Source of the DNA: a virus
Length of the DNA: 55,178 bases
Reading direction: 5' to 3' (one strand)
Virus genome (UHGV): UHGV-0298867
Both the position numbers and the translations under genes were made by a program. Of the stretch, positions 6,508 to 40,956 are shown in pieces. The notes beneath the pieces are model-generated. The model worked only from the letters and a program-made list of their open reading frames with translations, ran no database searches and was not told the DNA's origin. Each line of letters opens with the position of its first letter. Position 1 is the first letter of the stretch.

Positions 6508-9500
6508 CTATTCGTTTTTACCCGTCCCGGCTTCCCGGTGAACCACTCGAAACGCATGAGCATGGTGTAACCAGTATTCGCAGCTGGCTGGTGGCAAATG
6601 TTGAAGGCTACGAGGATCGGGATGTCCCACCGCTGACCGTTGAGGTTGAGGGGCTGTTAATTCCGCCAGGCGAGTGGGCTAAGTGTGTGATTCGCCCTGA
6701 TAGTGATGTCAGGCTTTATCCGGTTCCCTTCGGGCTGGAGGCCGCCACAATCGCGTGGATCGGCGTCGGTATCTCCGTTGCCGCTGCAGCCTATTCGTAC
6801 TTTATGATGAGCAACATCGATACGGGCGGCTATACCTCATCCACAGGGCGAAGTCTCGACCTGAACCCGGCAAAGGCGAATACCGCAAAACTCGGTGATG
6901 CCATTCGTGAGGTATTTGGCCGGGTGCGTATCTACCCTGATTATGTGGTGCAGCCGGTTACCCGGTTTGATGCCGCCGATCCTACGAAAATGCGCGTCCA
7001 GATGCTGCTGTGTCTCGGTGTCGGTGATCTGATTTATACCAATGGCGATATCAGGGTTGGCAGTACGCCAGCTTCAACGCTACCGGGATTCAGCAGCACC
7101 CATTACCCGCCAGGCGCGGACGTTTCCGGTGATGAGCGCAGCGAAAACTGGGTCAACTCCACCGAAGTGAGCGGGACGTCATCCGGCACCGGGCTGGATA
7201 TGGCCCAGACGTCGCCGGACGCAGACGACATTATCGCAGACAGCATGACCGTCTCCGGATCGAGCGTGACGTTTACCGGGCTGGACACGGATGATGATGA
7301 CGATAATGACGAGAACGATAACGCACTGCCGCCCAGCTGGGTCGCTGGCGCCGTGGTCGAACTTAAAGCCCCGGCGAACTACCAGATCACCACGGCGGCC
7401 GGATACAGCGTTATCGCAAGCCCGCTGCTGACGGAGATCGCGCCGGTAGTAGGTATGCCGGTGACGCTGGGGTTTAACTCTGTCGATTACGATCTGTTTA
7501 TCGCGTCATATACCCCCGGTCAGGCTGCAGTGCCCGGCACCGGGGGGAGTGCGGCAAAAGTCCAGGCGAGTGCGGCCCCGACCACCTACGATTTTTCGAC
7601 CAGCTCCAGCACGTTCACGATCACCTGGCAGGGGGTTAGCTACCCGGTGTCGCTGGTGGCTAACTACGTCTCGATGTCGGGACTGCTGGCGGCCATCACC
7701 GAGGGACTCACCGGCTCCGGCCTGGTTGCGCAGGACAACGGCGGCACCGTACTGATAACCGAGTCGGCCAGTCCGTTCGCGGGTGGGGCGATCACGTCCT
7801 CTTCGCTGCCTGCAGCTGTTTTCGGTGATGCCCCGGTTTACACCTCCGGCACGGCATCAACCGGCGGCAGCCCGGCGGTAACGGCGAATGTGACACTCGC
7901 CTATAACTCTGCCACGGGCACCGCATTCTCCGGGATGCCGGAGGGGGTGCAACGGCTTTCACTTGCTCACCGCGGGAATGAGTACCGGATTGTGTCAGCT
8001 GACGGCACGACGGCGACGGTGGCGCGCCTGGTTTCCGGTGCCGTTGATGAGTCATGGCCGGGATTCACCGCTAGGACGATGATCGACTATGAGGCTTCTG
8101 GCCTTAACGACACGCTGGGCTGGCTGGGGCCTTTCCTCGTATGCCCTGAGAATGAAGTGGTGGATGCATTCGAGGTGAATTTCTCCTTCCCGAACGGCAT
8201 CTGTGGCTTTGACAGCAAGGGGAAAAAGCGGCTTCGGCATGTTGAGTGGGAGATTCAGTATCGCGCCTACGGTTCCGGATCGGGGTGGGTGAGTCACCAG
8301 GGAGAGTATGCGCTTAAAAACGTCAACGGGCTGGGATTCACTGAGCGGATCACCCTCAGCTCACCAGGGCTGGTAGAGGTTCGCTGTCGCCGGCGCAATG
8401 AGCAGGGCTCAAACAACGCCAGGGATTCGATGTACTGGCAGGCACTGCGCGGGAGACTGCTGACGCGCCCTTCATCCTATCCCGGCGTGTCGCTGATGGC
8501 GGTGACCGTTGAGACGGGGGGCAAATTGGCGGCTCAGTCGGACCGCCGCGTAAACGTTGTGGCCACGCGGGCCTATGACTCAGGAACGGCCAGAACCATT
8601 TCGGGAGCGCTGCTGCATGTCGCGAACTCTCTTGGGCTGGAAATGGATGTCGACACCATCAACGCGTTGGAATCCGCGTACTGGACGCCACGGGGCGAAA
8701 ATTTCGATTTCGCCACGGGCGACAGTATCTCGGCGCTGGAAATGCTGCAGAAGATAGCCAATGCCGGGAAGTCACGTTTTCTGCTGAGTGATGGCCTGGC
8801 GACGGTCAACCGCGAGGGGATTAAGCCATGGACCGGTGTGATCACTCCGCATGAGATGGTGGAGGAGCTGCAGAGCGGATTTACCGTGCCCTCAGATGAT
8901 GATTTTGATGGTGTCGACGTGACGTACATCAACGGGACTACCTGGGCAGAGGAGACCGTTAAGTGCCGGACGCCTGATAATCCCACGCCGGTGAAAATCG
9001 AGAACTACAAACTCGATGGGGTACTGAATCAGGATCACGCCTACCAAATCGGGATGCGTCGCCTTATGAAATACCTGCAGCAGCGGGTGACGTTCCAGAC
9101 CACTACCGAGCTGGACGCGCTGTGCTACAACACGGGCGATCGCATTGTGCTCACGGATGATATTCCGGGTAACAACACAATTTCCTGTCTGGTGGAGGCG
9201 ATGACAACGGCTGGTGGCGTGACAACGTTCACCGTTACGGAGCCGCTGGACTGGTCTTTCGAAAATCCCCGAGCGCTGATCCGCTATCAGGATGGCTCTG
9301 CATCCGGGCTGATGGTGGCGAGCAGGGTGGGCGATTTTCAGTTGTCAGTCCCGCACCTGAGCGAGTTTGATGACCCGATGAAGGTTGACCTGTCGTCGGC
9401 AACCATCGAACCGATCCGCCTGGTGTTCTGTGGCTCAACGCGCCACGTCTACGACGCCATTGTAGAGGAGATCGCCCCGCAGTCAGACGGAACCTGTCAG

Positions 9501-9572
9501 GTCACCGCTAAAGAATACCTCGAATCGTTCTACCAGTACGACGACGCCACATACCCCGGCGACGTCGCGTAA
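6504..9572 (+). CDS. Tail tip / host specificity protein J-like (1022 aa) with an N-terminal gpI-like region
   Basis: Size and position at the end of the tail-tip module. The N-terminus resembles gpI and the C-terminal region resembles gpJ. Contains a poly-acidic linker DDDDDNDENDN. Confidence 0.8.
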   Translation: MTIRFYPSRLPGEPLETHEHGVTSIRSWLVANVEGYEDRDVPPLTVEVEGLLIPPGEWAKCVIRPDSDVRLYPVPFGLEAATIAWIGVGISVAAAAYSYFMMSNIDTGGYTSSTGRSLDLNPAKANTAKLGDAIREVFGRVRIYPDYVVQPVTRFDAADPTKMRVQMLLCLGVGDLIYTNGDIRVGSTPASTLPGFSSTHYPPGADVSGDERSENWVNSTEVSGTSSGTGLDMAQTSPDADDIIADSMTVSGSSVTFTGLDTDDDDDNDENDNALPPSWVAGAVVELKAPANYQITTAAGYSVIASPLLTEIAPVVGMPVTLGFNSVDYDLFIASYTPGQAAVPGTGGSAAKVQASAAPTTYDFSTSSSTFTITWQGVSYPVSLVANYVSMSGLLAAITEGLTGSGLVAQDNGGTVLITESASPFAGGAITSSSLPAAVFGDAPVYTSGTASTGGSPAVTANVTLAYNSATGTAFSGMPEGVQRLSLAHRGNEYRIVSADGTTATVARLVSGAVDESWPGFTARTMIDYEASGLNDTLGWLGPFLVCPENEVVDAFEVNFSFPNGICGFDSKGKKRLRHVEWEIQYRAYGSGSGWVSHQGEYALKNVNGLGFTERITLSSPGLVEVRCRRRNEQGSNNARDSMYWQALRGRLLTRPSSYPGVSLMAVTVETGGKLAAQSDRRVNVVATRAYDSGTARTISGALLHVANSLGLEMDVDTINALESAYWTPRGENFDFATGDSISALEMLQKIANAGKSRFLLSDGLATVNREGIKPWTGVITPHEMVEELQSGFTVPSDDDFDGVDVTYINGTTWAEETVKCRTPDNPTPVKIENYKLDGVLNQDHAYQIGMRRLMKYLQQRVTFQTTTELDALCYNTGDRIVLTDDIPGNNTISCLVEAMTTAGGVTTFTVTEPLDWSFENPRALIRYQDGSASGLMVASRVGDFQLSVPHLSEFDDPMKVDLSSATIEPIRLVFCGSTRHVYDAIVEEIAPQSDGTCQVTAKEYLESFYQYDDATYPGDVA

Positions 9573-9601
9573 TACCCTATAACAACCCCTAATTAACTCT
9601 T

Positions 9602-9652
9602 TTCGCTCAAACCCTCGTTTGGGCGAAGCCTCTTTTTGGAGCAAAAAACATG
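9602..9652. repeat. Left inverted repeat of the invertible segment. It contains the 26-bp hix/gix-like crossover site TTCGCTCAAACC-CT-CGTTTGGGCGAA (9602-9627), plus the 5' UTR and ATG of the downstream fibre gene.
   Basis: 50/51 nt identical to the reverse complement of 14640-14690. The 26-bp site has 12-bp half-sites around a 2-bp core, as hix/gix sites do. Confidence 0.8.
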
Positions 9653-10393
9653 GCCCTGACTCCTCCACTCGGCTCGACGACACCAGAGGTCTTGTTACGT
9701 AATGCTGGCGATCTTGATCGCGCCATGAACAGTGAAGATGATACCTGGCAAAACCGAGGTGGTGATGAGCTCCCCACCATGAAGGGATATCAGAAACAGG
9801 TGGATGCCATCACTGATGATGTTTTTCAGGCCAGGGATACGGCTGTTGAAGCAGCTGCAACGTTACCCACAAAACAACAATTCCTTGAGCTACAGGTGGA
9901 AGTCGACGGTATCACGGCCGATCCTGCAAACGCGATTGCAAACATTACCATTCCGGCGAAAGACTTTGACCTTGCTGTAGGGAGTGCCAGTTTTGGCATG
10001 ATAGCCAGTCGCCTCGCGGGCTGGCAGTTCACTCATGGGGTAAACGCATCCATCACCAAAATGATAGACCTGCCGTCTCACTGGTCAAAAATGCGTATAT
10101 CCCTGATCTGGACAAACCTCGTTGCTAACAACAATTTCAATGTGAGCCTTTCAGGTGAGCGGCATAGCTGGTCTGCCGGTGAGTCTTTCAATCAGGAGCC
10201 TGCAGGTTATGCTGCGGTCGTTCCGGTTAATGGCACACCGTTTATTGCAGTGGAAACACAATTAGCGCTTGATCTCACCGTTGACCCTACACGGCATACT
10301 ACCCTTCGCATCGGACGAAATGGCGCGTCTTCCAGCGATACCCTGCCCACTGCCATCGCATTACTCGCCGTCAGACTGACAAAGGTGGCTTAA
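9650..10393 (+). CDS. Tail fibre/spike N-terminal anchor-domain protein (247 aa), module A of the switchable receptor-binding cassette
   Basis: The N-terminus MALTPPLGSTTPEVL is shared with the convergent 868-aa fibre (MAELNPPLGTTTPEIF). It lies immediately downstream of the J-like gene and inside the IR-bounded segment. Confidence 0.6.
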   Translation: MALTPPLGSTTPEVLLRNAGDLDRAMNSEDDTWQNRGGDELPTMKGYQKQVDAITDDVFQARDTAVEAAATLPTKQQFLELQVEVDGITADPANAIANITIPAKDFDLAVGSASFGMIASRLAGWQFTHGVNASITKMIDLPSHWSKMRISLIWTNLVANNNFNVSLSGERHSWSAGESFNQEPAGYAAVVPVNGTPFIAVETQLALDLTVDPTRHTTLRIGRNGASSSDTLPTAIALLAVRLTKVA

Positions 10394-11629
10394 ATGAGTG
10401 TTTACCAGTCATGGCGGACGGCCTGGCGAACACCAGGCGTGTTAAGAAATTATCCTCCTAATCCGCTTTATGTGGATACGGTCAGAGGAAAAGCGTCGGG
10501 AAAAGGGTCAGTCGATGATCCAGTGAACAGCCTCGGTCTGGCGCAGGGGTTATGCCTCGGTCTTTCCGATTATGAAATAAAGATTATTGCCCCGGAAAGT
10601 TCTCCACTACGACAGGAGGTTGTATTTAACACCACCGAGAATGTGACCTTATCAGGCGTTGATGGTGAACCGTGGTACACCTTTGGATCTGAAGAACATA
10701 CATCCGGGTGGACTCAGAACGGTCAGATTTTTCAGAAAACACTGGGGTATACCTCTGTGCTTCAGGTGGTCGTTACATCAATGACGGAGACGGTCGGTGA
10801 CAGAGATGATTTTCTTTTTAAACTACTACAAAACACCTCCACGCCGACCACGCCAGCAGCTGGTGAGTATGGATATGCAGGAGGCATTATTTATGTCCGG
10901 TTACCGGATGATTCAGACCCTGCTCTGCACTCGATTGAAATATCCCGGCGTAATTTTGGGGTAGCGACAACCGGGTTTGGACTCCTTACGGTGAATGACT
11001 GTATCGCGCGCTATTGCATGATTAATGGCATTTCCTGCGGGTTATCCACGCAACCGGCAGGCACCGGCTTCCTGACCGTCAATGACTCCGTTATTGAGTA
11101 CTGTGCGAATGCCGGTGTTGGTGGTACGGGGCGAAATGAGTTGATAATCTGTAATAACGTGCGTGCCTGGCGGATTTCAAATGATGGCTTCGGGCAGCAT
11201 GCGCCTGTAGGCGGTGCCGGAAAAATGATCCTGAATGGCTGTAATGGTAGTTATAACGGCGATCAGGCCGGTCAGTCTGCCCAGGGGGCTTCAAACCATG
11301 AGTTTACGAAAATGGTAATCAACGGAGGGACATTCAATTTTAATGTCTCAGGCGGAATGGTGGCTATTGAAAATGCGCAGTGTGATATTCACGGCGACAC
11401 AAAATACGGGCCTGTTGTGATGGACGGGAATATGAGGCTGGGGAATACGGCAGGAACTATCGCCAGCCAGGCTGGATGCGCCTGGCTGAACTATGCCACT
11501 GGGATAGTGACGGGAGATGTAACCGTTAAAAACGGTCAAGGTGTCGGCGTTCGCCGTGGGCCAGATGCCATCGTGGAAGGTATCGCAACGATCCACTCAA
11601 TCAACAACGCACTGCCGGATATTTTGTGA
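10394..11629 (+). CDS. Right-handed beta-helix (pectate-lyase-like) receptor-binding or depolymerase-like tailspike protein (411 aa)
   Basis: Repeated beta-helix rungs (NDCIARYCMINGISCG, NDSVIEYCANAGVGG, ICNNVRAWRISNDGFG). It has its own RBS AAGGTGG. It is in the same frame as the upstream ORF, separated from it by a single TAA. Confidence 0.65.
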   Translation: MSVYQSWRTAWRTPGVLRNYPPNPLYVDTVRGKASGKGSVDDPVNSLGLAQGLCLGLSDYEIKIIAPESSPLRQEVVFNTTENVTLSGVDGEPWYTFGSEEHTSGWTQNGQIFQKTLGYTSVLQVVVTSMTETVGDRDDFLFKLLQNTSTPTTPAAGEYGYAGGIIYVRLPDDSDPALHSIEISRRNFGVATTGFGLLTVNDCIARYCMINGISCGLSTQPAGTGFLTVNDSVIEYCANAGVGGTGRNELIICNNVRAWRISNDGFGQHAPVGGAGKMILNGCNGSYNGDQAGQSAQGASNHEFTKMVINGGTFNFNVSGGMVAIENAQCDIHGDTKYGPVVMDGNMRLGNTAGTIASQAGCAWLNYATGIVTGDVTVKNGQGVGVRRGPDAIVEGIATIHSINNALPDIL

Positions 11630-11636
11630 GGTAAAA

Positions 11637-11852
11637 ATGACAGTATGCAGATTGTGTCAGTGTGAGCCAATGGTGATGACAAAGCCGGAAACCGATGGAA
11701 TCACCTATTTTTATGTGCATTATGTGGAATGTTCCGGATGTGGCATAGGAACAAAACGGTTTTCTGAGCAAATGATGGAGGCTGAGGCCGCTATCAGCCA
11801 GGCTTCAGAACAGTGGGAGCTGATGAATATAACGGTTCCTGACATCAGATAG
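11637..11852 (+). CDS. Lar-family restriction alleviation-like zinc-ribbon protein (71 aa)
   Basis: CRLCQC...YFYVHYVECSGCG...SEQW fits the Lar/RalR pattern CxxCxC...C..C...A..W. The ATG at 11637 lies 8 nt after the spike-gene stop. Confidence 0.5.
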   Translation: MTVCRLCQCEPMVMTKPETDGITYFYVHYVECSGCGIGTKRFSEQMMEAEAAISQASEQWELMNITVPDIR

Positions 11853-12007
11853 ACGATATGCGGCTCCTGTCACGTACGTTATTTAACGAGCCTCCCGGCG
11901 ACCTTGTTGCACTCTAAAGACGAGAAACATCTGGAAACACCAGGAATTTTCTTAGAAGATACTCGATGCGCAAAGACGCACACAGCAATAATGTCATTCA
12001 GTATTTT

Positions 12008-12037
12008 CCCCCGGCGTGCCTCCGGGGGCGTTTTTTT
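12008..12037 (+). terminator. Intrinsic terminator CCCCCGG-CGTGCCT-CCGGGGG-CG-TTTTTTT, at the convergence point of modules A and B
   Basis: A 7-bp GC stem with a 7-T run. The stop codon of the minus-strand fibre gene (12036-12038) overlaps the T-run. Confidence 0.7.
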
Positions 12038-14642
12038 AAAGCATATTCACAACGCTTGCCATTCTCCGGGCTATCAACTCTCCGCCAGCGGCATTCGGAT
12101 GCAGGTTATCCCCGGTATAGAGACTCAGGTTATAGAGATTTATTCCGCTTTCAGCAAACAAATCGCAGACTGGCACACTGAATAACGCGCACACTTCTCT
12201 AATGGCCTGCACGTACTGTGGCAACGTAAAGCCCGCTGAGTTCGCCGCCGGATAAACCGGCTGGCTTTCAAATGTACCTCGTTTCATCGGCGTACTGAAC
12301 ATCACTCGTACCGTTGGTTTCAGGGTATAGATTTTGTTCAATACGAAGAACACGTCGTAATAAAACGATTTAACCGTCGTATCATCATAATCCGCCCTGG
12401 CGTCTGCAATTGTCCCGAGCCGGCGATTTCCCCCGTAATCGTTCGTCCCTCCCAGAATCGAAATGAAATCCATCGCATCAATAGTGGTGGCGTTGAGTGA
12501 ATCAGCCATCGTTCTGACTCCCTGACCAGGTACGCCATAATTGGCAATCTGGCGCATACCAGTCCGGGAAAGTAGTGGCGCAATGTAATTCCCCGTGTTT
12601 GTTATGCTGTCACCAAGGAATCCGATCCCCTTTCCCTGCCAGGGCAATTCCTGCCCCTGCCCACCGAAAGGAACATATCCAGCAGGAACAGCCTGACCAG
12701 GTGAAACCATCAGGCTGTTCAGGCGTGTCAGGTTGTAGACCTGGAACCGAACAAAATATGCATTATCAGGAACAGCATAAGGCGTATTTGCGACCAGATT
12801 CTGGAAGCCGCTGAGGAAGGTGCCGTCAATTTTATAGAATGCGCCGCCACCTGAGCCATACGTAGAAACGAACCAGTCTCCAGGAGTGACCATCATCATT
12901 GGCGTTGCGAAGTACCCCGGTGAAGAGGTTAGCCCGCCGGTCTGATAAGAAACGCCCCTGTCTGTCTGGGCGAGTTCGCTGTTATAGAGATTCACCGACA
13001 CTTTTTGCAGGGACAGTGCGACCGAGCGCGCTACAGTCAGCGATTTTGTATCAACGTAAGTTGACGTCGGCGAACCAAACGACAGGTAGCTCGCAGGGAG
13101 TGCTGAGCCTTCAACCATCATCAGTGTGTTTTTTGCTGAAAGACCGTATACCTGAAACCGGACATAAACCGCACCAGATGGCGTGGTAAAAACGGTTCCG
13201 GCAGCAATAGTGGTGTTCAAAATTTTGGTTTTGTTGATATCAAAATAGACAACCACACCTGATGCACTGCTTGCGATGTATTGCGTGTTAGGTTTTACCG
13301 GGATAAATGGCGTGACAAAATATCCGGATGCCACATAGGGCGCTCCAGTAGTCGCCAGCGCATAATTATCCAGCGCAACATCCTTGTTGAACATATTGCG
13401 TATGGCGGCCAGAGTACCGTCCGCAATTCCCCAGCTGATTGACTGGGTGATTGCCGTTGCCTCTGCAGTTGTCAGCGCGCCAAACCCCAAATAAGATGAC
13501 GGCAGAGAGGTTCCGCGAACAACCATCAGACTTTCTTTACCCGATAGCGGTGTGCTCTGGAAACGCAGGTAACAGGAACCAGTCGGAACGGTAAAGGTCG
13601 TTGCAGCAGCGACAGTGATATTTGACGTTTTGCTCAGGTCAGGATCATAGAAGCATAATACCTGCGTACCAGATGAGAGGATGTAACTCTCTCCGGGAAG
13701 GACCGGGATATAGTCAGTAACAAAATAGCTGGCATTTGCCGTCAGACTGCCGTTAGTCGAGAGCGCATATCCGTCGTTAGCCCGGTTTTTATCAAACAGG
13801 TTTCGTACCAGAGCGTTCGCTCGTGAGCTAATATCAATTGCCTGCTCCAGGGCAGTTCGTTTGGCGGAGAAAGGGTCGACCAGACCGGCCCCAATGTGAC
13901 CAGCAGGAAGAGAAGTACCTTTAATTAGCATCTGTCCGGATTTGCCAGTGCTCAGCGTCTGCGAGAACCGGATATAACGAGTCCTGGCTGGCGTGGTAAA
14001 AACGGTTCCGGCAGTGGCGCCTGCAACATAGGAAATGAAATTGCCCTGTAAATCATAAAATGCCAGTTGTGACACATTCACAGCGAAAACATACTGCGTA
14101 CCGTCGAGTGCGGGTATCATGTCACTCACAAAGTACGCCGCATTTGCGACCAGCGAGCCGGTAGAGCCAACCGCAAAACCATCCGTAGTCCGCTCTTTGT
14201 CGAAATAGTTAATGACCAGTGAGCCGCGCCCTACATCAGAATAAATCTGCCCAGTCACCGCACTGACAGAATCCAGATATGACTTAGACGGCATCTGCCG
14301 CCCGGTAGGCTGCAACGTCCCACCGTTGTTGATTACCTCAAGAGCCAGCGCGCTATCGTCCGGGCTGCGGTAATACGTCGTAGAGCCCACCGGAATATTC
14401 GCGATATCCGCCTGCGCCGCAGCCAGCGTCGCATACTGGCGGCTGAGAGGAATCAGATTCTGTCGTGTCTCCTCTGTAAGGGCTTCATTCTTCGCCATCA
14501 TTCCGCGCCAGGTATCGAGCGGTTCACCGCCGCGGTCGTCAACCGTTCCTGCCGGACCGTTAACCAGTTCGTCAGCGCGCTTAACGTTGTCCATGAATAT
14601 TTCCGGCGTCGTCGTGCCCAGTGGCGGGTTAAGTTCGGCCAT
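12036..14642 (-). CDS. Tail fibre (868 aa), module B. It has an N-terminal anchor, four tandem ~110-aa repeat (carbohydrate-binding-like) domains, and a C-terminal SGNH/GDSL esterase domain.
   Basis: GDSIT (block I), GTND (block III) and DNLHPN (block V) are SGNH hydrolase motifs. The four repeats have the form F(D/N)K..DGYA..TGSL.AN..YFV..IP...F..P.G..Y.RFQ. Confidence 0.8.
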   Translation of the reverse strand: MAELNPPLGTTTPEIFMDNVKRADELVNGPAGTVDDRGGEPLDTWRGMMAKNEALTEETRQNLIPLSRQYATLAAAQADIANIPVGSTTYYRSPDDSALALEVINNGGTLQPTGRQMPSKSYLDSVSAVTGQIYSDVGRGSLVINYFDKERTTDGFAVGSTGSLVANAAYFVSDMIPALDGTQYVFAVNVSQLAFYDLQGNFISYVAGATAGTVFTTPARTRYIRFSQTLSTGKSGQMLIKGTSLPAGHIGAGLVDPFSAKRTALEQAIDISSRANALVRNLFDKNRANDGYALSTNGSLTANASYFVTDYIPVLPGESYILSSGTQVLCFYDPDLSKTSNITVAAATTFTVPTGSCYLRFQSTPLSGKESLMVVRGTSLPSSYLGFGALTTAEATAITQSISWGIADGTLAAIRNMFNKDVALDNYALATTGAPYVASGYFVTPFIPVKPNTQYIASSASGVVVYFDINKTKILNTTIAAGTVFTTPSGAVYVRFQVYGLSAKNTLMMVEGSALPASYLSFGSPTSTYVDTKSLTVARSVALSLQKVSVNLYNSELAQTDRGVSYQTGGLTSSPGYFATPMMMVTPGDWFVSTYGSGGGAFYKIDGTFLSGFQNLVANTPYAVPDNAYFVRFQVYNLTRLNSLMVSPGQAVPAGYVPFGGQGQELPWQGKGIGFLGDSITNTGNYIAPLLSRTGMRQIANYGVPGQGVRTMADSLNATTIDAMDFISILGGTNDYGGNRRLGTIADARADYDDTTVKSFYYDVFFVLNKIYTLKPTVRVMFSTPMKRGTFESQPVYPAANSAGFTLPQYVQAIREVCALFSVPVCDLFAESGINLYNLSLYTGDNLHPNAAGGELIARRMASVVNML

Positions 14643-14690
14643 GTTTTTTGCTTCAAAAAGAGGCTTCGCCCAAACGAGGGTTTGAGCGAA
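14640..14690. repeat. Right inverted repeat of the invertible segment. It contains the 26-bp hix/gix-like site (14665-14690) and the start codon (minus strand) of the module B fibre.
   Basis: Its reverse complement equals 9602-9652 with one mismatch. The IR ends exactly at the outer edge of the 26-bp site. Confidence 0.8.
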
Positions 14691-14733
14691 TGGCCGCGGC
14701 TTTTTACAATCAGCTATTTCAAGGAGTTAGATA

Positions 14734-15282
14734 GTGCTGATTGGCTATGCTCGGGTATCAACCGGGGATCAAAACCTCGATTTACAGAAAAATGCGCTGA
14801 TTCGCGCAGAATGTGAGCTGATTTACGAGGATACGGCGAGCGGAAAGAATGCCCGGCGGGCTGGGCTAAAGCGCGCGCTGCGGCAGCTAAAGCCGGGTGA
14901 TGTGCTGGTGGTCTGGAAACTGGATAGGTTGGGGCGCAGCGTGCGGGATTTAATCACGTTGGTGTCAGAGCTGCAGGCGCGTGGGGTGAACTTTCGAAGC
15001 CTGACTGACTCGATCGACACATCAACGGCCGCGGGGCGTTTCTTCTTCCACGTCATGAGCGCGCTGGCAGAGATGGAACGAGAGCTGATTGTGGAGAGGA
15101 CCCGCGCAGGACTGGTGGCGGCGAGAGAGCAGGGGCGTATCGGCGGACGTCGCCGGGTAATGACTGAAGAAGTGGTGGAGCGGTGCCGCAGAATGCTGGA
15201 GAACGGCGCTACCCGGCAGCAGGTAGCCGATGTGATAGGTGTAGACGTGAAAACAATCTACAAGTACCTCCCGGCGACTTGA
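14734..15282 (+). CDS. Serine DNA invertase of the Hin/Gin/Cin/Pin family (GTG start, RBS AAGGAG)
   Basis: MLIGYARVSTGDQNLDLQ...GRFFFHVMSALAEMERELI...GRIGG matches Gin (MLIGYVRVSTNDQNTDLQ...GRFFFHVMGALAEMERELI) almost throughout. The gene abuts IR-R. Confidence 0.95.
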   Translation: MLIGYARVSTGDQNLDLQKNALIRAECELIYEDTASGKNARRAGLKRALRQLKPGDVLVVWKLDRLGRSVRDLITLVSELQARGVNFRSLTDSIDTSTAAGRFFFHVMSALAEMERELIVERTRAGLVAAREQGRIGGRRRVMTEEVVERCRRMLENGATRQQVADVIGVDVKTIYKYLPAT

Positions 15283-15359: not shown

Positions 15360-15782
15360 TTGTTCGTGAACGGTAAGAAAACAATAAGTTTTGAGCAATT
15401 TTTAACTATTAACAGCAATCTTGTTTCCATCTCAGATACATGGGCTGACTTGTGGGCGTTAATTTTTCACACGGGTTTAAGCGCTGGAAGGCTGCTGAGT
15501 ATTCGATATGATGATATTGATGGTGACTTGATACTGATACGAAAACAGGGTCACCTGAAGGAGCTACGTGTTAAATCAACCCCTCCAGTGGAGGCGATGA
15601 TTGCTCGTAGAAGAGAACGCTATCCAGAAGATGTTTTTTTATTTCAGAGCCATTCTAACCGTGTGAAGTACCAACGCCGGCCGGTCACTATAATTGCTTT
15701 CAACGCCGCTTTACGTCGCGCCGCTAGATCATTACCAGACGTTAACGTAAGCAGTAGTAGCGCGAGAAACATACCGGACTAA
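15360..15782 (+). pseudogene. Fragment of a small FimB/FimE-like tyrosine recombinase. It lacks both the N-terminal part and the C-terminal H-R-H-Y region.
   Basis: HTGLSAGRLLSIRYDDIDGDLILIRKQGHLKELRV has the first catalytic Arg and the Lys box of tyrosine recombinases. The ORF ends before the HxLRH and Tyr motifs. Confidence 0.45.
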
Positions 15783-15796
15783 CCGCCTGTCCAGTC

Positions 15797-15855
15797 GCGT
15801 GTGGCCGATGTGACAGGCGTGGGGGGGGAAGACTATTTACAAATATTTGCCAGTA
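15797..15855 (+). pseudogene. Degenerate relic copy of the invertase 3' end
   Basis: GGCCGATGTGACAGGCGTGG...ACTATTTACAAATATTT aligns with the invertase C-terminus GTAGCCGATGTGATAGGTGTAGACGTGAAAACAATCTACAAGTACCT (15222-15270). Confidence 0.55.
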
Positions 15856-15864
15856 CAATACGGC

Positions 15865-15970
15865 GATAAAAAATCCCCTTGAGCAGGCACACTCAAGGGG
15901 AAAATACTACATAACATCATTGCTGTGTGCGTCTTTGCGCTCGTCTATCTTCCAAGAAGATGCCTAAAGC
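15865..15970 (-). repeat. Inverted, diverged copy of the fibre-end/terminator region 11890-12037. It includes a conserved terminator hairpin (15875-15900) with its T-run on the minus strand.
   Basis: The reverse complement of 11935-12037 aligns with 15868-15945 (GGGGAAAATACT..ATTGCTGTGTGCGTCTTTGCGC). The stem differs by compensatory changes. Confidence 0.55.
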
Positions 15971-16010
15971 TTCCAGATATTTCTGGTCTGAGCAGTTAAA
16001 ACATTGGTTT

Positions 16011-16070
16011 GGTAGCCGATGTGATAGGAGTGGGAGTAAAGACGATTTATAAATATTTTCCAGCCGGTTA
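16011..16070 (+). pseudogene. Second degenerate relic of the invertase 3' end
   Basis: GTAGCCGATGTGATAGGAGTGGGAGTAAAGACGATTTATAAATATTTTCC aligns with the invertase C-terminal coding sequence. Confidence 0.55.
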
Positions 16071-16294
16071 AGTTTGCTCACCTGCGAACCGTATGCAAGA
16101 GATCGCAGGTGAGCAATTTGCTATTAAGGCATTGCCATAGCTGAAAAATTTTAACCTCGCATTGTTCGCAAAACCATCAAACAGCTAAGGCCTGAAAACA
16201 CTTTCAGACTAACCTTACTCGTTACATCAATGTGTTACGGCAATGACAAAAATTTATAGCCAGAACCTATATTGATCTGTCGTCCTGTTAAAAC

Positions 16295-16314
16295 TACTGT
16301 ATATAAAAACAGTA
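16295..16314. promoter_or_regulatory. LexA (SOS) box TACTGTATATAAAAACAGTA upstream of umuD
   Basis: A perfect CTGT-N8-ACAG palindrome matching the consensus TACTGTATATATATACAGTA, 20 nt upstream of the umuD ATG. Confidence 0.85.
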
Positions 16315-16334
16315 TTAATCTGAGCGAGTCAATT

Positions 16335-16754
16335 ATGCAGTTTTACACGCCCGTTGAGTTACGTGAGATCATGCTGATCCCGTTGTACAGTGACCTTGTG
16401 CAATGTGGTTTTCCAAGCCCTGCACAGGATTACGTTGAGCAACGCATCGATCTGAACGAGTTGCTCGTTAACCACCCCAGTGCGACGTATTTTGTCAAAG
16501 CCGCCGGCGACAGCATGAAGGATGCCGGCATAGGAGAAGGTGATCTTCTTGTTGTGGATAGCTCAAGGACAGCAGTTCATGGCGATATCGTTATCGCTGC
16601 AGTGGATGGGGAATTCACCGTTAAGAAGCTGCAGCTGCATCCGCGGGTTCAGCTTAACCCAATGAACCCTGCATATTCGCCGATAGTCGTCGGTAGTGAG
16701 GACACTCTCGACGTGTTCGGGGTGGTTACGTACATCATCAAATCAGCTGGCTGA
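16335..16754 (+). CDS. umuD: UmuD (DNA polymerase V accessory subunit, S24 LexA-like peptidase)
   Basis: [61 protein letters not shown] is near-identical to E. coli UmuD, including the CG cleavage site and the Ser and Lys catalytic residues. Confidence 0.95.
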
Positions 16755-16755
16755 G

Positions 16756-18021
16756 ATGTTTGCACTTTGCGATGTGAACTCATTTTACGCATCCTGCGAA
16801 ACTGTTTTCCGTCCTGACCTGAAGGGGCGTCCGGTGGTCGTTCTGTCAAACAACGACGGCTGTGTGATCGCCCGCTCGCAAGAGGCGAAGCCCTTCGTCA
16901 AAATGGGCGAGCCTTATTTCAGGCAAAAGGACATGTTTCGCCGGCACGGTATTATCGCGTTTAGCAGCAACTATGAGCTTTATGCCGATATGTCCAACCG
17001 AGTGATGACAACGCTGGAGGAACTCTCTCCACGCTGCGAAATTTACAGTATTGATGAGGCATTTTGCGACCTGGCAGGAGTTCGGAATTGTCGCGACCTT
17101 ACCGACTTTGGCAGGGAAATTCGCGAGACGGTTCTGCGCAGGACGCACCTCACGGTCGGTGTCGGCATAGCCCAGACTAAAACCCTGGCAAAGCTGGCCA
17201 ATCACGCGGCGAAACAGTGGCAGCGGCAGACCGGAGGAGTGGTGGATCTGTCTAATCTGGAAAGACAGAGAAAGTTGATGGCTTTGCTTCCGGTGGATGA
17301 GGTCTGGGGAGTCGGGCGCCGCATCAGTAAAAAACTGGAGGCAATGGGCATTAAAACAGTGCTTCAACTGGCTGATACCGATATCCGTTTTATCCGGAAG
17401 CATTTTAATGTGGTTCTGGAGCGAACCGTGCTGGAGCTGCGAGGCGAACCATGCCTCGGGCTGGAGGAGTTCGCGCCGGTAAAGCAGGAGATTGTCTGTA
17501 GTCGCAGCTTTGGGCAGCGGATTTCCACCTACGAAGAGATGCGCCAGGCAATATGCAGCTACGCATCGCGCGCAGCGGAGAAACTCCGTGGTGAGCACCA
17601 GTATTGCAGATTTATCTCCGTATTTGTTAAAACCAGCCCCTTTGCGTTGAATGAACCGTACTACGGGAACAGCGCATCAGTAAAGCTGCTAACTCCAACC
17701 CAGGACAGTCGGGACATAATTACCGCGGCGACGAAATGCCTCGATGTAATCTGGCGAGACGGACATTGCTACCAAAAAGCAGGAGTGATGCTCGGGGATT
17801 TCTTCAGCCAGAGCGTAGCGCAGCTTAACCTCTTCGATGATAACGCACCACGGAAGAACAGTGAAAAGCTTATGGAAGTTCTCGACCACCTCAACGCAAA
17901 GGATGGCAGGGGGACGCTATATTTTGCTGGGCAGGGGATCCAGACTGCCTGGCAGATGAAGCGAGAAATGCTATCACCTCGATACACCACGAGATATAGT
18001 GACTTGATTAAAATCAGATAA
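16756..18021 (+). CDS. umuC: UmuC (DNA polymerase V catalytic subunit, Y-family)
   Basis: MFALCDVNSFYASCETVFRPDLKGRPVVVLSNNDGCVIARS... matches E. coli UmuC along its whole length. It starts 1 nt after the umuD stop. Confidence 0.95.
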   Translation: MFALCDVNSFYASCETVFRPDLKGRPVVVLSNNDGCVIARSQEAKPFVKMGEPYFRQKDMFRRHGIIAFSSNYELYADMSNRVMTTLEELSPRCEIYSIDEAFCDLAGVRNCRDLTDFGREIRETVLRRTHLTVGVGIAQTKTLAKLANHAAKQWQRQTGGVVDLSNLERQRKLMALLPVDEVWGVGRRISKKLEAMGIKTVLQLADTDIRFIRKHFNVVLERTVLELRGEPCLGLEEFAPVKQEIVCSRSFGQRISTYEEMRQAICSYASRAAEKLRGEHQYCRFISVFVKTSPFALNEPYYGNSASVKLLTPTQDSRDIITAATKCLDVIWRDGHCYQKAGVMLGDFFSQSVAQLNLFDDNAPRKNSEKLMEVLDHLNAKDGRGTLYFAGQGIQTAWQMKREMLSPRYTTRYSDLIKIR

Positions 18022-18269: not shown

Positions 18270-19364
18270 ATGAAAAATAAAAACTACAGCGTTGAGTGTG
18301 ATGATGAATCATTTGTATCTAAAGACGTTCAAGCTCTGATCAACAACGGTCTGGAATTTCTGGATAAGGCACGCGAAGAGTTGGAAGCCTCCAAGCCGAA
18401 ATTTTCGATTGTCAGTTTCTGGACAGCGGTTGAGATTATGTTGAAAGTGCCGCTGGTACACGAACACTGGAGCTTAGTGTGTTCCGGAAGGAAAATTGAA
18501 AAAGCAAAATACCTTGCAGGTGATTTCCAGTCGATCACGTATGATGAAACCTGTCAGCGATTAGGTGATGTGCTTCAAAATCCCTTACCGAAAGAAACCA
18601 TCGCTGTATTCAAAAAAGTTAAGGACCACCGCAACCGTGTAGTTCATTTTTATCATTCTGATTTCACCGATACTCAAGTGAAGACAATTCTTGATGAACA
18701 GGCTGATGCTTGGTTTGCGCTAAACCGTTTTATGCGTGATCAGTGGTTCTACCTTTTTGGAGAACCGCTAAACTCAAAGCTGGCATCAGATGAGGACCGT
18801 ATGCTCCGGAGTTCGTTATTTTATGCTGATGCAAAATTTCGTTTTCTCCAGCCTATTCTTGATAATCTCAGAAATAAGGGAAGCACGATTTCAACCTGTC
18901 GTGCCTGCAGCAAAGAAGCTCTCGTTGACATGCCTATCAATGAGGAAAGTGGGAATACTCTTCACGAGGCAGATTGCTTAGTGTGCGGTTGCAGGGCTGA
19001 TCCATATGTCGAAGTGACATGCCCTGATTGCGGGGCAAAGCAGGATATGGGTGCTACCGGTGGAACGCAATTCAATTGCAGTAACTGTAATTATTCTTCA
19101 TCACGGTACGACTTGCTGGATGAGTGGATTGGCAAACCGGAAGAATTTAGTTATTCGGGTCTTCCAGCAAGTTGTTCCGATTGCGAAGGCTATGAGACGG
19201 TATGTGAGTACGGAGGTGGATATCTGTGTACGAACTGCCTTGTTTTTCATCAGTCAATAGGTACTTGTGGTTACTGCGGAGGAAGCTCTACATCAGTTAG
19301 TGAAATGAGCGGGCTGGTTGGTTGCGGATTTTGTGACGGAAATACTAAGTATCTTGATGACTGA
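18270..19364 (+). CDS. Orphan protein: an N-terminal all-alpha domain with a possible HEPN Rx4H motif (DHRNRVVHF), then a C-terminal array of about eight CxxC pairs (four zinc ribbons)
   Basis: Lower GC than its flanks. A long ORF with a good RBS context. Cys pairs: CRAC..CLVCGC, CPDCG..CSNCNYSS, CSDCEG..CTNC, CGYCGG..CGFCDG. Confidence 0.6.
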   Translation: MKNKNYSVECDDESFVSKDVQALINNGLEFLDKAREELEASKPKFSIVSFWTAVEIMLKVPLVHEHWSLVCSGRKIEKAKYLAGDFQSITYDETCQRLGDVLQNPLPKETIAVFKKVKDHRNRVVHFYHSDFTDTQVKTILDEQADAWFALNRFMRDQWFYLFGEPLNSKLASDEDRMLRSSLFYADAKFRFLQPILDNLRNKGSTISTCRACSKEALVDMPINEESGNTLHEADCLVCGCRADPYVEVTCPDCGAKQDMGATGGTQFNCSNCNYSSSRYDLLDEWIGKPEEFSYSGLPASCSDCEGYETVCEYGGGYLCTNCLVFHQSIGTCGYCGGSSTSVSEMSGLVGCGFCDGNTKYLDD

Positions 19365-19974: not shown

Positions 19975-20368
19975 GGTTACCTCCAGTCTTCAGACTGAAA
20001 GTATAGAAGGTGTGGAGGAAACGTAGGAAGGGAACTCCGACAGCCATCTAACTGATGACTGTCGGAGATGACGTCAAAAACAATGTGTACAAAATTGTGT
20101 ATTAAAATCAGGAAAATTGCACAATTTGAAAATTTAACTCATTGTTTTTAATTGACAAAAACATTTATTTTGTAGGTGCTATCGTAGGGCATATGAATCC
20201 GTTTTAAGTTTGTTAGTCATGCTTTAAGTCTTTTCAAAAATCCCGCTAATACCAACACATTGCCAGCATTCAGTGCTTTAATTTTGTGTGTTCTGCATTG
20301 ATTTGAAGGTTATCAATTTAACCAAAATGTGTACACTGATGTGTATATCATCTTCCGGAGTGTACACA

Positions 20369-21556
20369 TTGCTTACCGACACAAAATTAAGAAAAGCTCT
20401 TGGCAAAAAGAGAGACCAGATCGAGGTCATATCGGACGCTCATGGTCTGAATGTCCGGTTGTCTACTTCCGGCAGTATAACATTCTTTTACCGCTACAGA
20501 TGGAACGGGAAAGCCGCTCAGCTAACGATTGGCGATTATCCCACCACCTCCTTATCTCAAGCTCGCGAACGTAGACAGCAGTTCAGGGCGTGGTTGACAG
20601 AAGGACTCGATCCGAGACGGCAAATAGTTCTGGAGAAACAGAAAAAAGTCGAAGCGCTCACCGTTAAAGAGGCTTTCGATTACTGGGAAAAGTATTACTG
20701 CATCCCTGAAGGTCTTGTGAAAATCAAGGTTAACCGACGGGACTTCAATAACCATATAGCGCCTGTGCTGGGGAACATGATTGTTGATCAGACCACTAAA
20801 GCGCACTGGCTTAACCTTTTTGATGGCATGGGGCGAAGAGTTGTCACTGGTCAGATGCTTGGGCTGATGCAGCGTACGTTCCGTTTTTGCTCCAATCGAG
20901 GGGTCATTAATGTGAACCCAATTGAGAGCCTTAGGCGCTCTGACGTAGGTCTCACAGCATCCGTTAAAGATCGCAGATTGAGTGATGAGGAAATCAAAAC
21001 AGTTTGGAATATCCTTCCTGAATTGAAGTACAGACAACAGCTGATAATGAAGTTTCTCATCATGACTGGCTGCAGGAGTACAGAGATCAGGACAGCAAGA
21101 TGGGAGTGGTTCGATTTCCATGAGCAAACTTGGACCATTCCGGCAAGTGATTATAAAACCGGTAAATCGGTCAGAAGGGCACTTCCCGAGGCAGTAGTAA
21201 GAATGATGTTAGCAGAGAAGGAAACGTCAGTTTCAAAACACGTTGTGACACTGTCACGCTACAGGGGGCCAGAAGATGACAGACCGCCACTACAACCAAA
21301 CGTCGCTCTGTTTTCTGCTCAGATTATAGCTAAAACAGGCATGAAACCCTGGTCTCTCCATGACCTCAGGCGAACAGTGGCGACACGCCTTTCTGAATTA
21401 GGTGCGCCGCCACATGTTGTGGAAAAACTGCTTGGCCATCATATGGCAGGTGTCATGGCACGTTATAACCTGCATGATTATCTGGATGATCAGCGTCACT
21501 GGCTTGCTGTTTGGCAGGATCACCTTGAGAAGCTGGTTGGTCAGCCTCTGGTTTAA
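20369..21556 (+). CDS. int: Tyrosine integrase, P4-type. Probable TTG start at 20369 (MLTDTKLRKAL...). The ORF is open from 20288, with alternative ATGs at 20327 and 20339.
   Basis: An LTDTKLRKA N-terminus is typical of P4-family integrases. The C-terminus has HDLRRT...GH...ARY (R-H-R-Y catalytic residues). Confidence 0.9.
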   Translation: MLTDTKLRKALGKKRDQIEVISDAHGLNVRLSTSGSITFFYRYRWNGKAAQLTIGDYPTTSLSQARERRQQFRAWLTEGLDPRRQIVLEKQKKVEALTVKEAFDYWEKYYCIPEGLVKIKVNRRDFNNHIAPVLGNMIVDQTTKAHWLNLFDGMGRRVVTGQMLGLMQRTFRFCSNRGVINVNPIESLRRSDVGLTASVKDRRLSDEEIKTVWNILPELKYRQQLIMKFLIMTGCRSTEIRTARWEWFDFHEQTWTIPASDYKTGKSVRRALPEAVVRMMLAEKETSVSKHVVTLSRYRGPEDDRPPLQPNVALFSAQIIAKTGMKPWSLHDLRRTVATRLSELGAPPHVVEKLLGHHMAGVMARYNLHDYLDDQRHWLAVWQDHLEKLVGQPLV

Positions 21557-23028: not shown

Positions 23029-24138
23029 TTAGCCCACGTATTCCGGTTTCATGTCGTCCAGGGTGATGCGGAACTGCTCATACAGTTCATCACCGAGGTG
23101 GCGGCGCGATGAGGTCAGGGTGCTTTCTGCCTTCGCGAATAACGCTTCGGCTTCCGGATCCCCCGGGTTAGGAAGTGAATTTATGGCGGCCTCAACTTTG
23201 TTTCGGGCGTCTACCATGAAATAACGCTGCACGGCTTTACCTTTCAGTTCGGTGAAAAGAACAGTGCCAAACACAGCTTTCTCTTTATCCAGATCCGCCC
23301 TGATGGCTTTTGCTGCATCGACCGATTCGGCGCGCTCAATGCGGTCACGGAAATCATCTGCCAGGGAGTCAATATTGAGAGCTGAATCCTGCGCGCTGGT
23401 GGTGATGTCTGTTCCGCTGGTGATCTCTGCGACAGACATTCTTTGCGCCGGCGCCGGGTTTATTTCTCGCTCGGTCCTTTGTTCAACTTCATCCGGGCTG
23501 TAAACACCCAGGATGACTTCCGGGCAATACAGCCGTGCCCAGTATTTGACGCCCAGATAAGCGATCTGCTGTTTCGGGTTAGAAACCCACAAAGGAGAAT
23601 TACGTGTGACGACTCCAGAGAGATAAAGTGGCTCACCCCAGGTGATTTCTGATTCACCACGCAGAATCGCGCCGACCTGGACGAATAACCCGATTTCGTC
23701 TTCATCAGTCCAGCCGCGCACCCGTTCTGTAACGCTGTATTTCCCATTTTTACCGTGTTTTTCCCTGGTAATTTCCTGCGTCCTTGTGCAACGTTCCCAG
23801 TCGCCGCCGTAGCGATAATGAAATCGACCGTTAATAGCGCTGGAACTGGCGATTACCGCGTTGACGAGTTGGGCTTCATATCCGAGCACGCCGTTTACCA
23901 GATGCGTTTTTTGCGCGACTGCATAGGGATTCATGCCCCACTGCATAGCCTGCATAACGATGGCCATGCAATCGGCTGGCTTACCTGCAAGGTGAGCTGG
24001 CACTGTCACTTGTGAATCAGCCATAAGGTTTGCGAAAGCAGTTAACTGACCGAGAGCCTGAACGTTAAAGATCGCGTTGCTAGCTGAAATGGTGTTTGGT
24101 GCCTGCTGTTCGGCTGTAACAATGTTAGTGTTTTCCAT
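23029..24138 (-). CDS. recT: RecT-family single-strand annealing protein
   Basis: Immediately downstream of the RecE-like gene. YEAQLVNAVIASSSAINGR resembles RecT GYRGMIDLARRSGQIASL. The C-terminus is acidic. Confidence 0.65.
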   Translation of the reverse strand: MENTNIVTAEQQAPNTISASNAIFNVQALGQLTAFANLMADSQVTVPAHLAGKPADCMAIVMQAMQWGMNPYAVAQKTHLVNGVLGYEAQLVNAVIASSSAINGRFHYRYGGDWERCTRTQEITREKHGKNGKYSVTERVRGWTDEDEIGLFVQVGAILRGESEITWGEPLYLSGVVTRNSPLWVSNPKQQIAYLGVKYWARLYCPEVILGVYSPDEVEQRTEREINPAPAQRMSVAEITSGTDITTSAQDSALNIDSLADDFRDRIERAESVDAAKAIRADLDKEKAVFGTVLFTELKGKAVQRYFMVDARNKVEAAINSLPNPGDPEAEALFAKAESTLTSSRRHLGDELYEQFRITLDDMKPEYVG

Positions 24139-24150
24139 GACTGTTCCCCC

Positions 24151-27100: not shown

Positions 27101-27249
27101 TCTTTGCCGCGGCCTGTTTCGATCCCAGCGTCTTCCAGATCGACGTCGAGCTGGAGTAGAGCGCGAGCTTCTGATTTATTAGTGCGCCAGATTACGGCAT
27201 CAGCTTTACCCGATTTTTGAGTCGCTTTTATCAGATAAAAATATTCCAT
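24151..27249 (-). CDS. recE: Exodeoxyribonuclease VIII (RecE-like). Start at the ATG at 27249 ([24 protein letters not shown]), RBS GAGG.
   Basis: [38 protein letters not shown] matches RecE [38 protein letters not shown]. There are more matches along the protein, and the C-terminus is a PD-(D/E)xK nuclease domain. Confidence 0.85.
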   Translation of the reverse strand: [1032 protein letters not shown]

Positions 27250-27386
27250 GTGATAGCCTCTATTTTGGATGTAGAATCCCCCGGGCCATTGGTAGCGCCC
27301 ATTCAGGGTGGTCATTGGTTTTGGTAATTTCCGGTGAAACTTTGGTCGGTGGCACCGGACGTACAGCCCGCTTCGGCGGGTTTACG

Positions 27387-40651: not shown

Positions 40652-40680
40652 TTGAAACCAGAAAGACTGAATGTTAAATT
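40652..40680 (+). promoter_or_regulatory. Candidate late promoter PR'-like (-35 TTGAAA, 17-nt spacer, -10 TAAATT)
   Basis: A consensus-like sigma70 promoter ~300 nt upstream of a strong terminator and ~470 nt upstream of the holin gene. Confidence 0.35.
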
Positions 40681-40956
40681 TCTGGTGTGGTGAATCCCCC
40701 TATGCGGAGGGACGTCCAGTCAGTTACAGAACCTGTAAATGCAGCGCGGGCCATGCCGACTGGGGCATGCTCACCGGGAGGCACCCGGCACCACGCAATG
40801 CTACTAAGCTATTTGGTAGTGGGGTTGCTGTTTCGGCTTCTCCAGCTATGTTTAAAAGGCAGTAACGGAAAAAGCGAGCGCTCTCCTGGTAAATCGGTAG
40901 CTCGGACTATTAGGTACGTCTCGATCCGGTACAGAATCAGTATTGCCTACATTTCT

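Follow-up and report, generated by a model that had tools for sequence, protein, structure and literature searches.

The viral genome UHGV-0298867 (55,178 nucleotides; "the window" below means the whole of this stretch) carries a predicted DNA inversion switch, which is the subject of this report. An inverted repeat lies between J, the last gene of the tail operon ahead of the switch, and a gene for a serine DNA invertase (Table 1). Its two arms of 54 nucleotides (nt), 9602-9655 and 14637-14690, are 98% complementary and 4,981 nt apart; with the arms included, the enclosed segment (9602-14690) measures 5,089 base pairs (bp). The left copy begins 29 nt past the J stop codon. The arms differ at one position, 9639, where the left copy reads GGAG and the right copy GAAG. 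The segment contains convergent genes: two open reading frames (ORFs) joined stop to start, ORF247 and ORF411, and a small ORF of 71 amino acids (aa) lie on the plus strand (cassette A), facing ORF868 on the minus strand (cassette B). The PHROG profiles matched by the 1022-aa product of J are those of a tail protein (PHROG 469) and of the central tail fiber J (PHROG 31). The invertase gene stands outside the segment, 43 nt from the right-hand recombination site, and is transcribed away from the segment.

Table 1. Features of the inversion locus, in coordinates of the window
Feature	Position	Strand	Basis or remark
Gene J, tail-tip/host-specificity protein of J/TipJ type, 1022 aa	6504..9572	+	Pfam FNIII-A_GpJ, Phage-tail_3; PHROG 469, PHROG 31
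Fixed part of the leader, J stop to outer half-site	9573..9613	+	Collinear with flipped relatives up to the repeat
Left recombination site, 26-bp imperfect dyad	9602..9627	+	Repeat search, shuffles, comparison with gix/pix/cix
Left arm of inverted repeat (site, 22-nt leader, ATGGCC)	9602..9655	+	Repeat search
Invertible part of the leader: T-run, Shine-Dalgarno GGAG (9638-9641), A-rich spacer	9628..9649	+	Near-invariant in the family
ORF247, gene 1 of cassette A, 247 aa	9650..10393	+	Anchor (about residues 1-60), helices, C-terminal beta-sandwich; model and fold search
ORF411, gene 2 of cassette A, 411 aa	10394..11629	+	Right-handed beta-helix; start abuts ORF247 stop
71-aa ORF, third of cassette A	11637..11852	+	Annotated as a gene in most relatives
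GC-rich hairpin followed by T-run, between the convergent cassettes	12008..12028	+	Terminator-like for cassette A (terminator scan)
ORF868, cassette B, 868 aa	12036..14642	-	Anchor (about residues 1-127), three repeats of 135 aa, C-terminal SGNH/GDSL esterase domain; Pfam Lipase_GDSL_2, PHROG matches, repeats D1 and D2
Right arm of inverted repeat	14637..14690	-	Repeat search; site at 14665-14690, A of the GAAG variant at 14653
Promoter-like sequence TTGAGC-17-TACAAT for the invertase	14682..14710	+	Consensus match only; -35 hexamer inside the right site
Serine DNA invertase, Gin/Cin/Pin/Hin family, 182 aa	14734..15282	+	Pfam Resolvase, HTH_7
Candidate recombinational enhancer within the invertase gene	14752..14823	+	Position equals the annotated cin enhancer; suggestive only

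The outer 26 nt of each arm form an imperfect dyad of the gix/pix type, TTCGCTCAAACC-CT-CGTTTGGGCGAA, centred at 9614-15 on the left and at 14677-78 on the right. The layout is 12-2-12 with half-sites of the form TT...AAAC(C/G), as in gix, pix and cix, and the two sites are inverted relative to one another with an identical asymmetric centre, CT. The window holds exactly two copies of the 26-nt site when three mismatches are tolerated, against 0.00 expected from 100 shuffles. In the left arm the site is followed by a 22-nt leader (T-run, GGAG at 9638-41, A-rich spacer) and by ATG GCC (9650-55). A sequence-only reading of this locus had located both start codons correctly (9650-9652 and 14640-14642). 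It took the repeat to end exactly at the ATG, when in fact the repeat runs on for 3 nt, through GCC, and it placed the site 23 nt upstream of the ATG; the actual distance is 22 nt, the central dinucleotide lying 34 nt upstream. As that reading stated, the DNA diverges directly after ATGGCC, and past that point the two copies, 98% identical up to there, share about 35% of positions (ungapped) or 49% (codon-aligned). Outside the repeat the flanks are unrelated (24% identical to each other). Identity of the outer half-sites, next to flanks that share 24% of positions, is expected of protein-binding sites and not of homology-driven exchange.

The ATG is preceded on each flank by an in-frame stop codon, the TAA at 9590-92 on the J side and another TAA within the spacer next to the invertase, and neither flank has an ATG, GTG or TTG between its stop and the ATG. 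Therefore no other start is possible, and no ORF crosses the site. The left arm doubles as a mosaic boundary: many phages align to positions 9000-9655 of the window at 94-97% identity and then stop, the matches of other phages ending at 9648-9655. As RNA, the site is predicted to form a stable hairpin of 11 bp (-14.8 kcal/mol; z between -3 and -3.6), with a U-run beginning 5 nt after the stem. A terminator scan flags this hairpin on both arms (9601-9640 and 14652-14690). The hairpin may attenuate transcription between J and the cassette.

Exact-protein look-ups of the segment genes in Klebsiella assemblies, followed by comparison between genomes, identified the same ORF247/411/868 segment in both orientations between the same J and invertase genes. 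ORF247 is next to J at loci L125-128, L134-137, L140 and L143; ORF868 is next to J at loci L131-133, L138, L139, L141 and L142. In four flipped loci aligned by BLAST, positions 9602-14690 match in reverse at 99.96-99.98% over exactly 5,089 nt, while the flanks are collinear. Both arrangements occur on multi-megabase chromosome records, CP025541.3 and LR890569.1 having one orientation and OZ259499.1 and JAMJQY010000001.1 the other. The single mismatch between the arms provided a marker for the breakpoint. The GAAG variant (A at the position equivalent to 9639) is polymorphic among near-identical prophages and is always attached to ORF868, never to ORF247. It is found on the invertase side in the window and at L126, L128, L137 and L140, and on the J side at L141 and L142. 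Since the marker stays with ORF868 upon inversion, exchange occurs upstream of 9639, within the 37 nt (9602-9638) that contain the site. This interval is consistent with the mechanism established for Gin and Hin, in which strands are exchanged at the central dinucleotide, and we infer that crossover takes place at the central CT (9614-9615). The GAAG variant weakens the Shine-Dalgarno sequence of the ORF868 copy and may tune expression of cassette B.

Some single chromosomes carry two prophages of the family, 0.2-1 Mb apart, with identical sites (L131/L132 in GCA_023554495.1, L128/L129 in GCA_904865805.1). In such a setting, the invertases could act in trans or between prophages.

The two fibres begin MALTPPLGSTTPEVL and MAELNPPLGTTTPEIF, as quoted correctly in the sequence-only reading. 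These N-termini share 37% identity over 73 aa (BLASTP, E 3e-10), and both proteins match the N-terminal part of the same PHROG profiles. At the DNA level, the codon-aligned N-terminal sequences are 49% identical; third positions agree at 33%, near random, and 12 of the 22 identical residues are encoded by different codons. As judged from these alignments, the resemblance is an old homology kept at the protein level. Convergence, which had been offered as an alternative to homology, is rejected on the BLASTP score, the shared PHROG profiles and the codon-level alignment. Each cassette carries its own anchor domain.

A scan of viral contigs with a degenerate form of the dyad returned at least 120 loci; with the window and two annotated relatives, these amount to at least 143 sites. 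Among the approximately 140 sites listed, barring a few truncated or odd loci, the site is separated by 21-23 nt (...TTTTGGAGCAAAAAACATGGCC) from an ATGGC, and the ORFs that follow begin MA(F/EL)NP(P/E)LG... The site is near-invariant where the pattern permitted variation, and the centre is always CT among the matches listed. At least 90 sites adjoin J and at least 44 adjoin an invertase. The complete first ORFs, numbering at least 90, fall into at least 57 protein clusters, and 9 of the 16 multi-member clusters occur on both sides among the matches listed. At loci with two sites, the length of the repeat ranges from the 26-bp site alone up to 323 nt, depending on whether the cassettes share an anchor allele: the repeat is reduced to the site in L003, L031 and L067, and extends for 130-320 nt, well into coding sequence, in L001, L008, L075, L106 and L117. 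Among deposited Klebsiella phage genomes the repeat is present in 23, and among 5,426 complete E. coli genomes in 22, mostly as two copies per genome. At six loci (L054, L057, L030, L078, L098 and L124) a J-side site is accompanied by an absent or fragmentary invertase gene or by a deletion inside cassette A. In these six, the switch seems to be frozen or to have decayed.

The invertase is 64% identical to Mu Gin over its full length and 68% identical to P1 Cin, and it matches the Gin structures 3uj3 and 4m6f in the Protein Data Bank (PDB) from end to end (E ~1e-67). The protein has an RVST motif with the catalytic serine, and comprises an N-terminal catalytic domain and a C-terminal helix-turn-helix domain. 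The P1 annotation puts the recombinational enhancer at nt 19-90 of cin. A proximal Fis-like motif, GCGCAGAATGTGAGC here and GCGCAGGATGTGAGC in cin, is conserved between the corresponding part of this gene and cin, gin and pinE; the sequence of the invertase gene yielded no clean pair of Fis sites. Across 42 distinct invertase genes of the family, codons 11-30 (14764-14823) show the lowest synonymous diversity (0.13 against a mean of 0.31), and their position coincides with that of the enhancer annotated in cin. The dip is suggestive of an enhancer, and could also reflect mosaic ancestry.

The region beyond the invertase gene contains several apparent remnants. At 15360-15782, a 140-aa ORF that many relatives also keep beside their invertase gene has a match to PHROG 19751 and a weak one to the C-terminal portion of tyrosine integrases; it resembles a fragment of an integrase. 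Two relics of an invertase 3' end (15800-15855 and 16012-16068) encode VADV...KTIYKY(L/F)P. The stretch between them, 15897-15989, repeats positions 11918-12011 in inverted orientation at 83% identity; the latter are the intergenic DNA 3' of cassette A, terminator included. The relics at 15800-16068 look like scars of past cassette or invertase replacement.

None of the three ORFs of cassette A has a significant match to a Pfam family, even at lenient thresholds, and a PDB sequence search with ORF411 gave no match; functions were assigned to ORF247 and ORF411 from predicted structures only. In its model, the C-terminal beta-sandwich of ORF247 resembles lectins and carbohydrate-binding modules. 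Other phages have this domain behind N-termini of quite another kind, and a 6,780-bp Martelella alba contig encodes it along with a homologue of ORF411. The predicted structure of ORF411 (pLDDT, the predicted local distance difference test score, 93) is a right-handed beta-helix, and its Foldseek matches include glycoside hydrolases, a Klebsiella K1 capsule lyase and phage tailspikes; PF13229 is present in distant homologues. ORF411 is thus a putative capsule glycanase or lyase. The 71-aa ORF has a weak Lar-like (zinc-ribbon) match, under the Pfam cut-off. In cassette B, the repeats of ORF868 lie at 12889-14014 as three spaced copies with a period of 405 nt (135 aa) and 61-82% DNA identity, and probably form a repeated fibre-shaft domain. 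The domain content of ORF868 marks it as a putative capsule deacetylase fibre; SGNH-type fibres of Klebsiella prophages have been shown to be active as esterases (PMC13123978).

The locus shares with Din-invertase systems the recombinase domains, the form and arrangement of the sites, and the occurrence of both orientations with breakpoints at the sites; binding of the protein to the site is predicted. In Mu (G/Gin), as here, 26-bp dyads are inverted, the invertase gene lies just beyond the right end and is transcribed outward, and convergent alternative host-range genes are inside with the promoter outside; the Mu gix site agrees with the present one at 15 of 26 positions. With P1 (C/Cin; also P7), the locus has in common the proximal Fis-like motif early in the invertase gene; cin, however, lies at the opposite end, its 3' end overlapped by cixL, whereas the invertase gene here adjoins the right site. 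The closest half-site is that of pix from e14 (P/PinE, grouped with the Rac and Qin Pin systems), GGTTTGGGAGAA, which the right half of the present site, CGTTTGGGCGAA, matches at 10 of 12 positions, and e14 is likewise a prophage element with a lambdoid-type tail module. Mu is a myovirus, while the phage described here is a siphovirus with a J-type tip.

These systems differ from the present one in where the crossover falls: 508 nt inside S in Mu, 1,361 nt (cixR) inside S in P1 and about 290 nt inside stfP in e14, as compared to 34 nt upstream of the ATG here, the site ending 22 nt before the only possible start. In Mu a fixed Sc is spliced to Sv or S'v, and e14 exchanges no more than the C-terminal parts together with their assembly proteins; here nothing is spliced, the anchor is duplicated in each cassette, and the cassettes, unlike those of Mu, encode different enzyme classes. 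The sequence-only reading had drawn this very distinction from Mu, P1 and e14, and its proposal that crossover occurs in the leader, with exchange of complete coding sequences, is upheld by the position of the site before the sole start and by the 9639 marker. Two of its details need amending. What is exchanged is complete, but it is a whole cassette or operon, two to three genes against one, rather than a single gene; and the ribosome-binding site and ATG, said to be shared, do move with the ORF but are not physically shared, each cassette having its own copy inside the invertible DNA.

Other known switches resemble the locus in part. Salmonella Hin shares the recombinase family, the type of site and the principle that a flip selects the expressed gene. 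Hin flips a promoter relative to fixed genes. The present arrangement is the opposite, the promoter being fixed and the genes flipping; and, in place of the inverting promoter of the Hin H segment or fimS, the segment holds complete ORFs. Min of p15B has several sites and undergoes multiple inversions. The window has two sites, again with three mismatches tolerated, and so does not follow the pattern of p15B Min or of the R64 shufflon. In the sap locus of Campylobacter fetus, complete alternative ORFs with a conserved 5' end are put under a single promoter by inversion. That inversion is RecA-dependent, uses long repeats and moves the promoter-bearing segment, with neither a serine invertase nor phage genes taking part.

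The features of the locus and the natural occurrence of both orientations make it highly probable that a Din-class switch (Gin/Hin/Cin/Pin), working by site-specific inversion and with its crossover in the untranslated leader, operates here in a temperate Klebsiella siphovirus. The invertase would pair the two 26-bp sites and exchange strands at the CT dinucleotides (9614-15 and 14677-78), flipping 9616-14676. The tail operon, J and the first 41 nt of the leader would remain fixed, and each flipped end would bring its own remainder of the leader, its GGAG ribosome-binding site, its ATG and a complete receptor-binding cassette. Every cassette opens with a homologous anchor domain of about 60-130 aa that presumably docks to the tail tip, so that the constant part of the fibre is duplicated within the cassettes and not spliced on. 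In the orientation of the window, read-through from J would express cassette A: ORF247 as a short fibre with a lectin tip, ORF411 as a beta-helix glycanase, and the 71-aa ORF. In the other orientation, cassette B, the 868-aa SGNH-esterase fibre, would be expressed. A consensus promoter scan found no promoter-like sequence between J and the ATG, none facing the invertase-proximal cassette and none reading out of the segment save the invertase candidate that straddles the right site, and a terminator-like hairpin separates the two cassettes. This pattern suggests that only the J-proximal cassette is transcribed, by late read-through of the tail operon. Catalysis by the invertase at the centre of the site, dependence on Fis and the enhancer, and a change of host range upon inversion are predicted.

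Several observations weigh against this model. Inversion is seen between genomes, not inside one culture. The silence of the distal cassette is deduced only from the consensus promoter scan, and the terminator-like site hairpin with its U-run could reduce expression of either cassette. The enhancer is partly recognisable, its proximal Fis-like site being conserved and its distal one diverged. Finally, the site is kept without an intact invertase in L054, L057, L030, L078 and L098; in such loci the leader may have a second role, or they may be frozen copies.

Could the locus be a classical Mu-type switch, in which a diverged constant region conceals a true crossover inside coding sequence? The homology of the N-termini is in keeping with such a past, as are the repeats running 130-320 nt into coding sequence in several relatives. 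Extension of the repeat into coding sequence in related genomes is what the sequence-only reading had itself named as evidence against leader crossover, and formally it is found. It does not overturn the claim, because at these loci, as at the approximately 140 sites listed, the site is still 21-23 nt upstream of the ATG and the anchor always on the invertible side, never serving as a fixed constant region. The sole gix-like dyad precedes the ATG in every one of them, the 9639 marker places the crossover ahead of the ribosome-binding site, the repeat may consist of no more than the 26-bp site, and the in-frame stops on both flanks let no ORF enter the segment from fixed DNA. Mu-type splicing thus seems extremely improbable. 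RecA-dependent homologous recombination between the 54-nt repeats, with the invertase uninvolved, would account for inversion in a different way, since any inverted repeat can recombine and those of some relatives reach 170-320 nt. However, 54 nt make a poor RecA substrate and the breakpoint marker confines exchange to the 37 nt holding the site. Moreover, cassettes are found on both sides even where lineages share just the 26-bp site, the outer half-sites are conserved though never exchanged, and site and invertase co-occur. We consider this explanation very unlikely.

A further alternative accepts inversion and denies it any effect on expression: both cassettes would be expressed constantly, giving a virion with two receptor-binding proteins. 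Branched systems with two such proteins are described as common in Klebsiella phages. Against constant expression, the two leaders are alike and promoterless, with no promoter-like sequence facing the invertase-proximal cassette; a conserved invertase and two invariant sites would be purposeless; and the shared anchor domain would set the two fibres in competition for one docking place. Constant expression appears very unlikely. As to the database orientations, repeats can mislead assemblers, but a 54-nt repeat is shorter than a sequencing read and both orientations stand on multi-megabase chromosome records; the chance that they are assembly artefacts is practically negligible. The Din-type switch with its crossover in the leader accordingly remains the preferred explanation.

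As a whole, the window has the look of a single, complete genome of a temperate phage whose gene order is permuted, with the tail genes first. Cargo genes resembling umuD (Peptidase_S24) and umuC (IMS family) lie directly downstream of the switch (16272-18021), followed by a 364-aa cysteine-rich ORF without a family match (18270-19364). An integrase gene is at 20288-21556, and RecT and RecE-like genes are at 23029-27315 on the minus strand. From their position, the large ORFs at about 44-54 kb look like the head and packaging module. An Rfam scan of the whole window gave a match to the small RNA STnc100 at 40658-40849 and none at the leader. No transfer RNA genes were found in the window.

Full-text literature searches returned no description of an architecture that swaps whole cassettes. 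The genome announcement of a related phage, KPP5665-2, is silent on the switch, and the words invertase and inversion are absent from three large surveys of Klebsiella receptor-binding proteins published recently (PMC13123978, PMC12491483, PMC13385381). A preprint reports an inversion of about 5 kb with five ORFs, beside a DNA invertase, in a prophage of K. pneumoniae ST14, which 'does not disrupt any ORF' (10.64898/2025.12.17.694638). It gives no mechanism, speculating only that the inversion may attenuate fibre production. The ST14 inversion is an independent wet-lab hint for the switch. The layout is mechanistically simple, undescribed in the searchable literature and yet common, and it bears on the prediction of host range in Klebsiella phages.

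We lean, with only a little more confidence than doubt, toward a broad reading of these data: that toggling, by a Gin-like invertase, of whole receptor-binding operons of different enzymatic classes, such as a glycanase and an SGNH deacetylase, is widespread in temperate siphoviruses of Klebsiella and, in part, of E. coli; that an invariant 'socket' (the site and the 22-nt leader) sits behind J; and that the junction and the anchor serve as a handle by which cassettes, of which there are over 50 types, are exchanged horizontally. For forty years, the Din-invertase switches of phages have been the textbook case of gene splicing by inversion. The present family shows that such machinery can also swap complete, multi-gene and enzymatically unrelated cassettes, because the site precedes the ATG and each cassette bears its own copy of the virion anchor. 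The conserved junction, made of site, leader and anchor, offers a natural plug-in point for designed receptor-binding cassettes. Large prophage studies link receptor-binding proteins to capsule type (PMC13123978, PMC12491483, PMC13385381), and the capsule specificity of prophage receptor-binding proteins has proved hard to predict from genome data (PMC13123978). If the broad reading is right, about half of the receptor-binding genes of such prophages would go unexpressed at any given time and would not have to fit the capsule of the host that carries them. A cassette silenced by its orientation would weaken associations between receptor-binding protein and capsule type, and we suggest that it could help explain the poor prediction of capsule specificity reported in PMC13123978.

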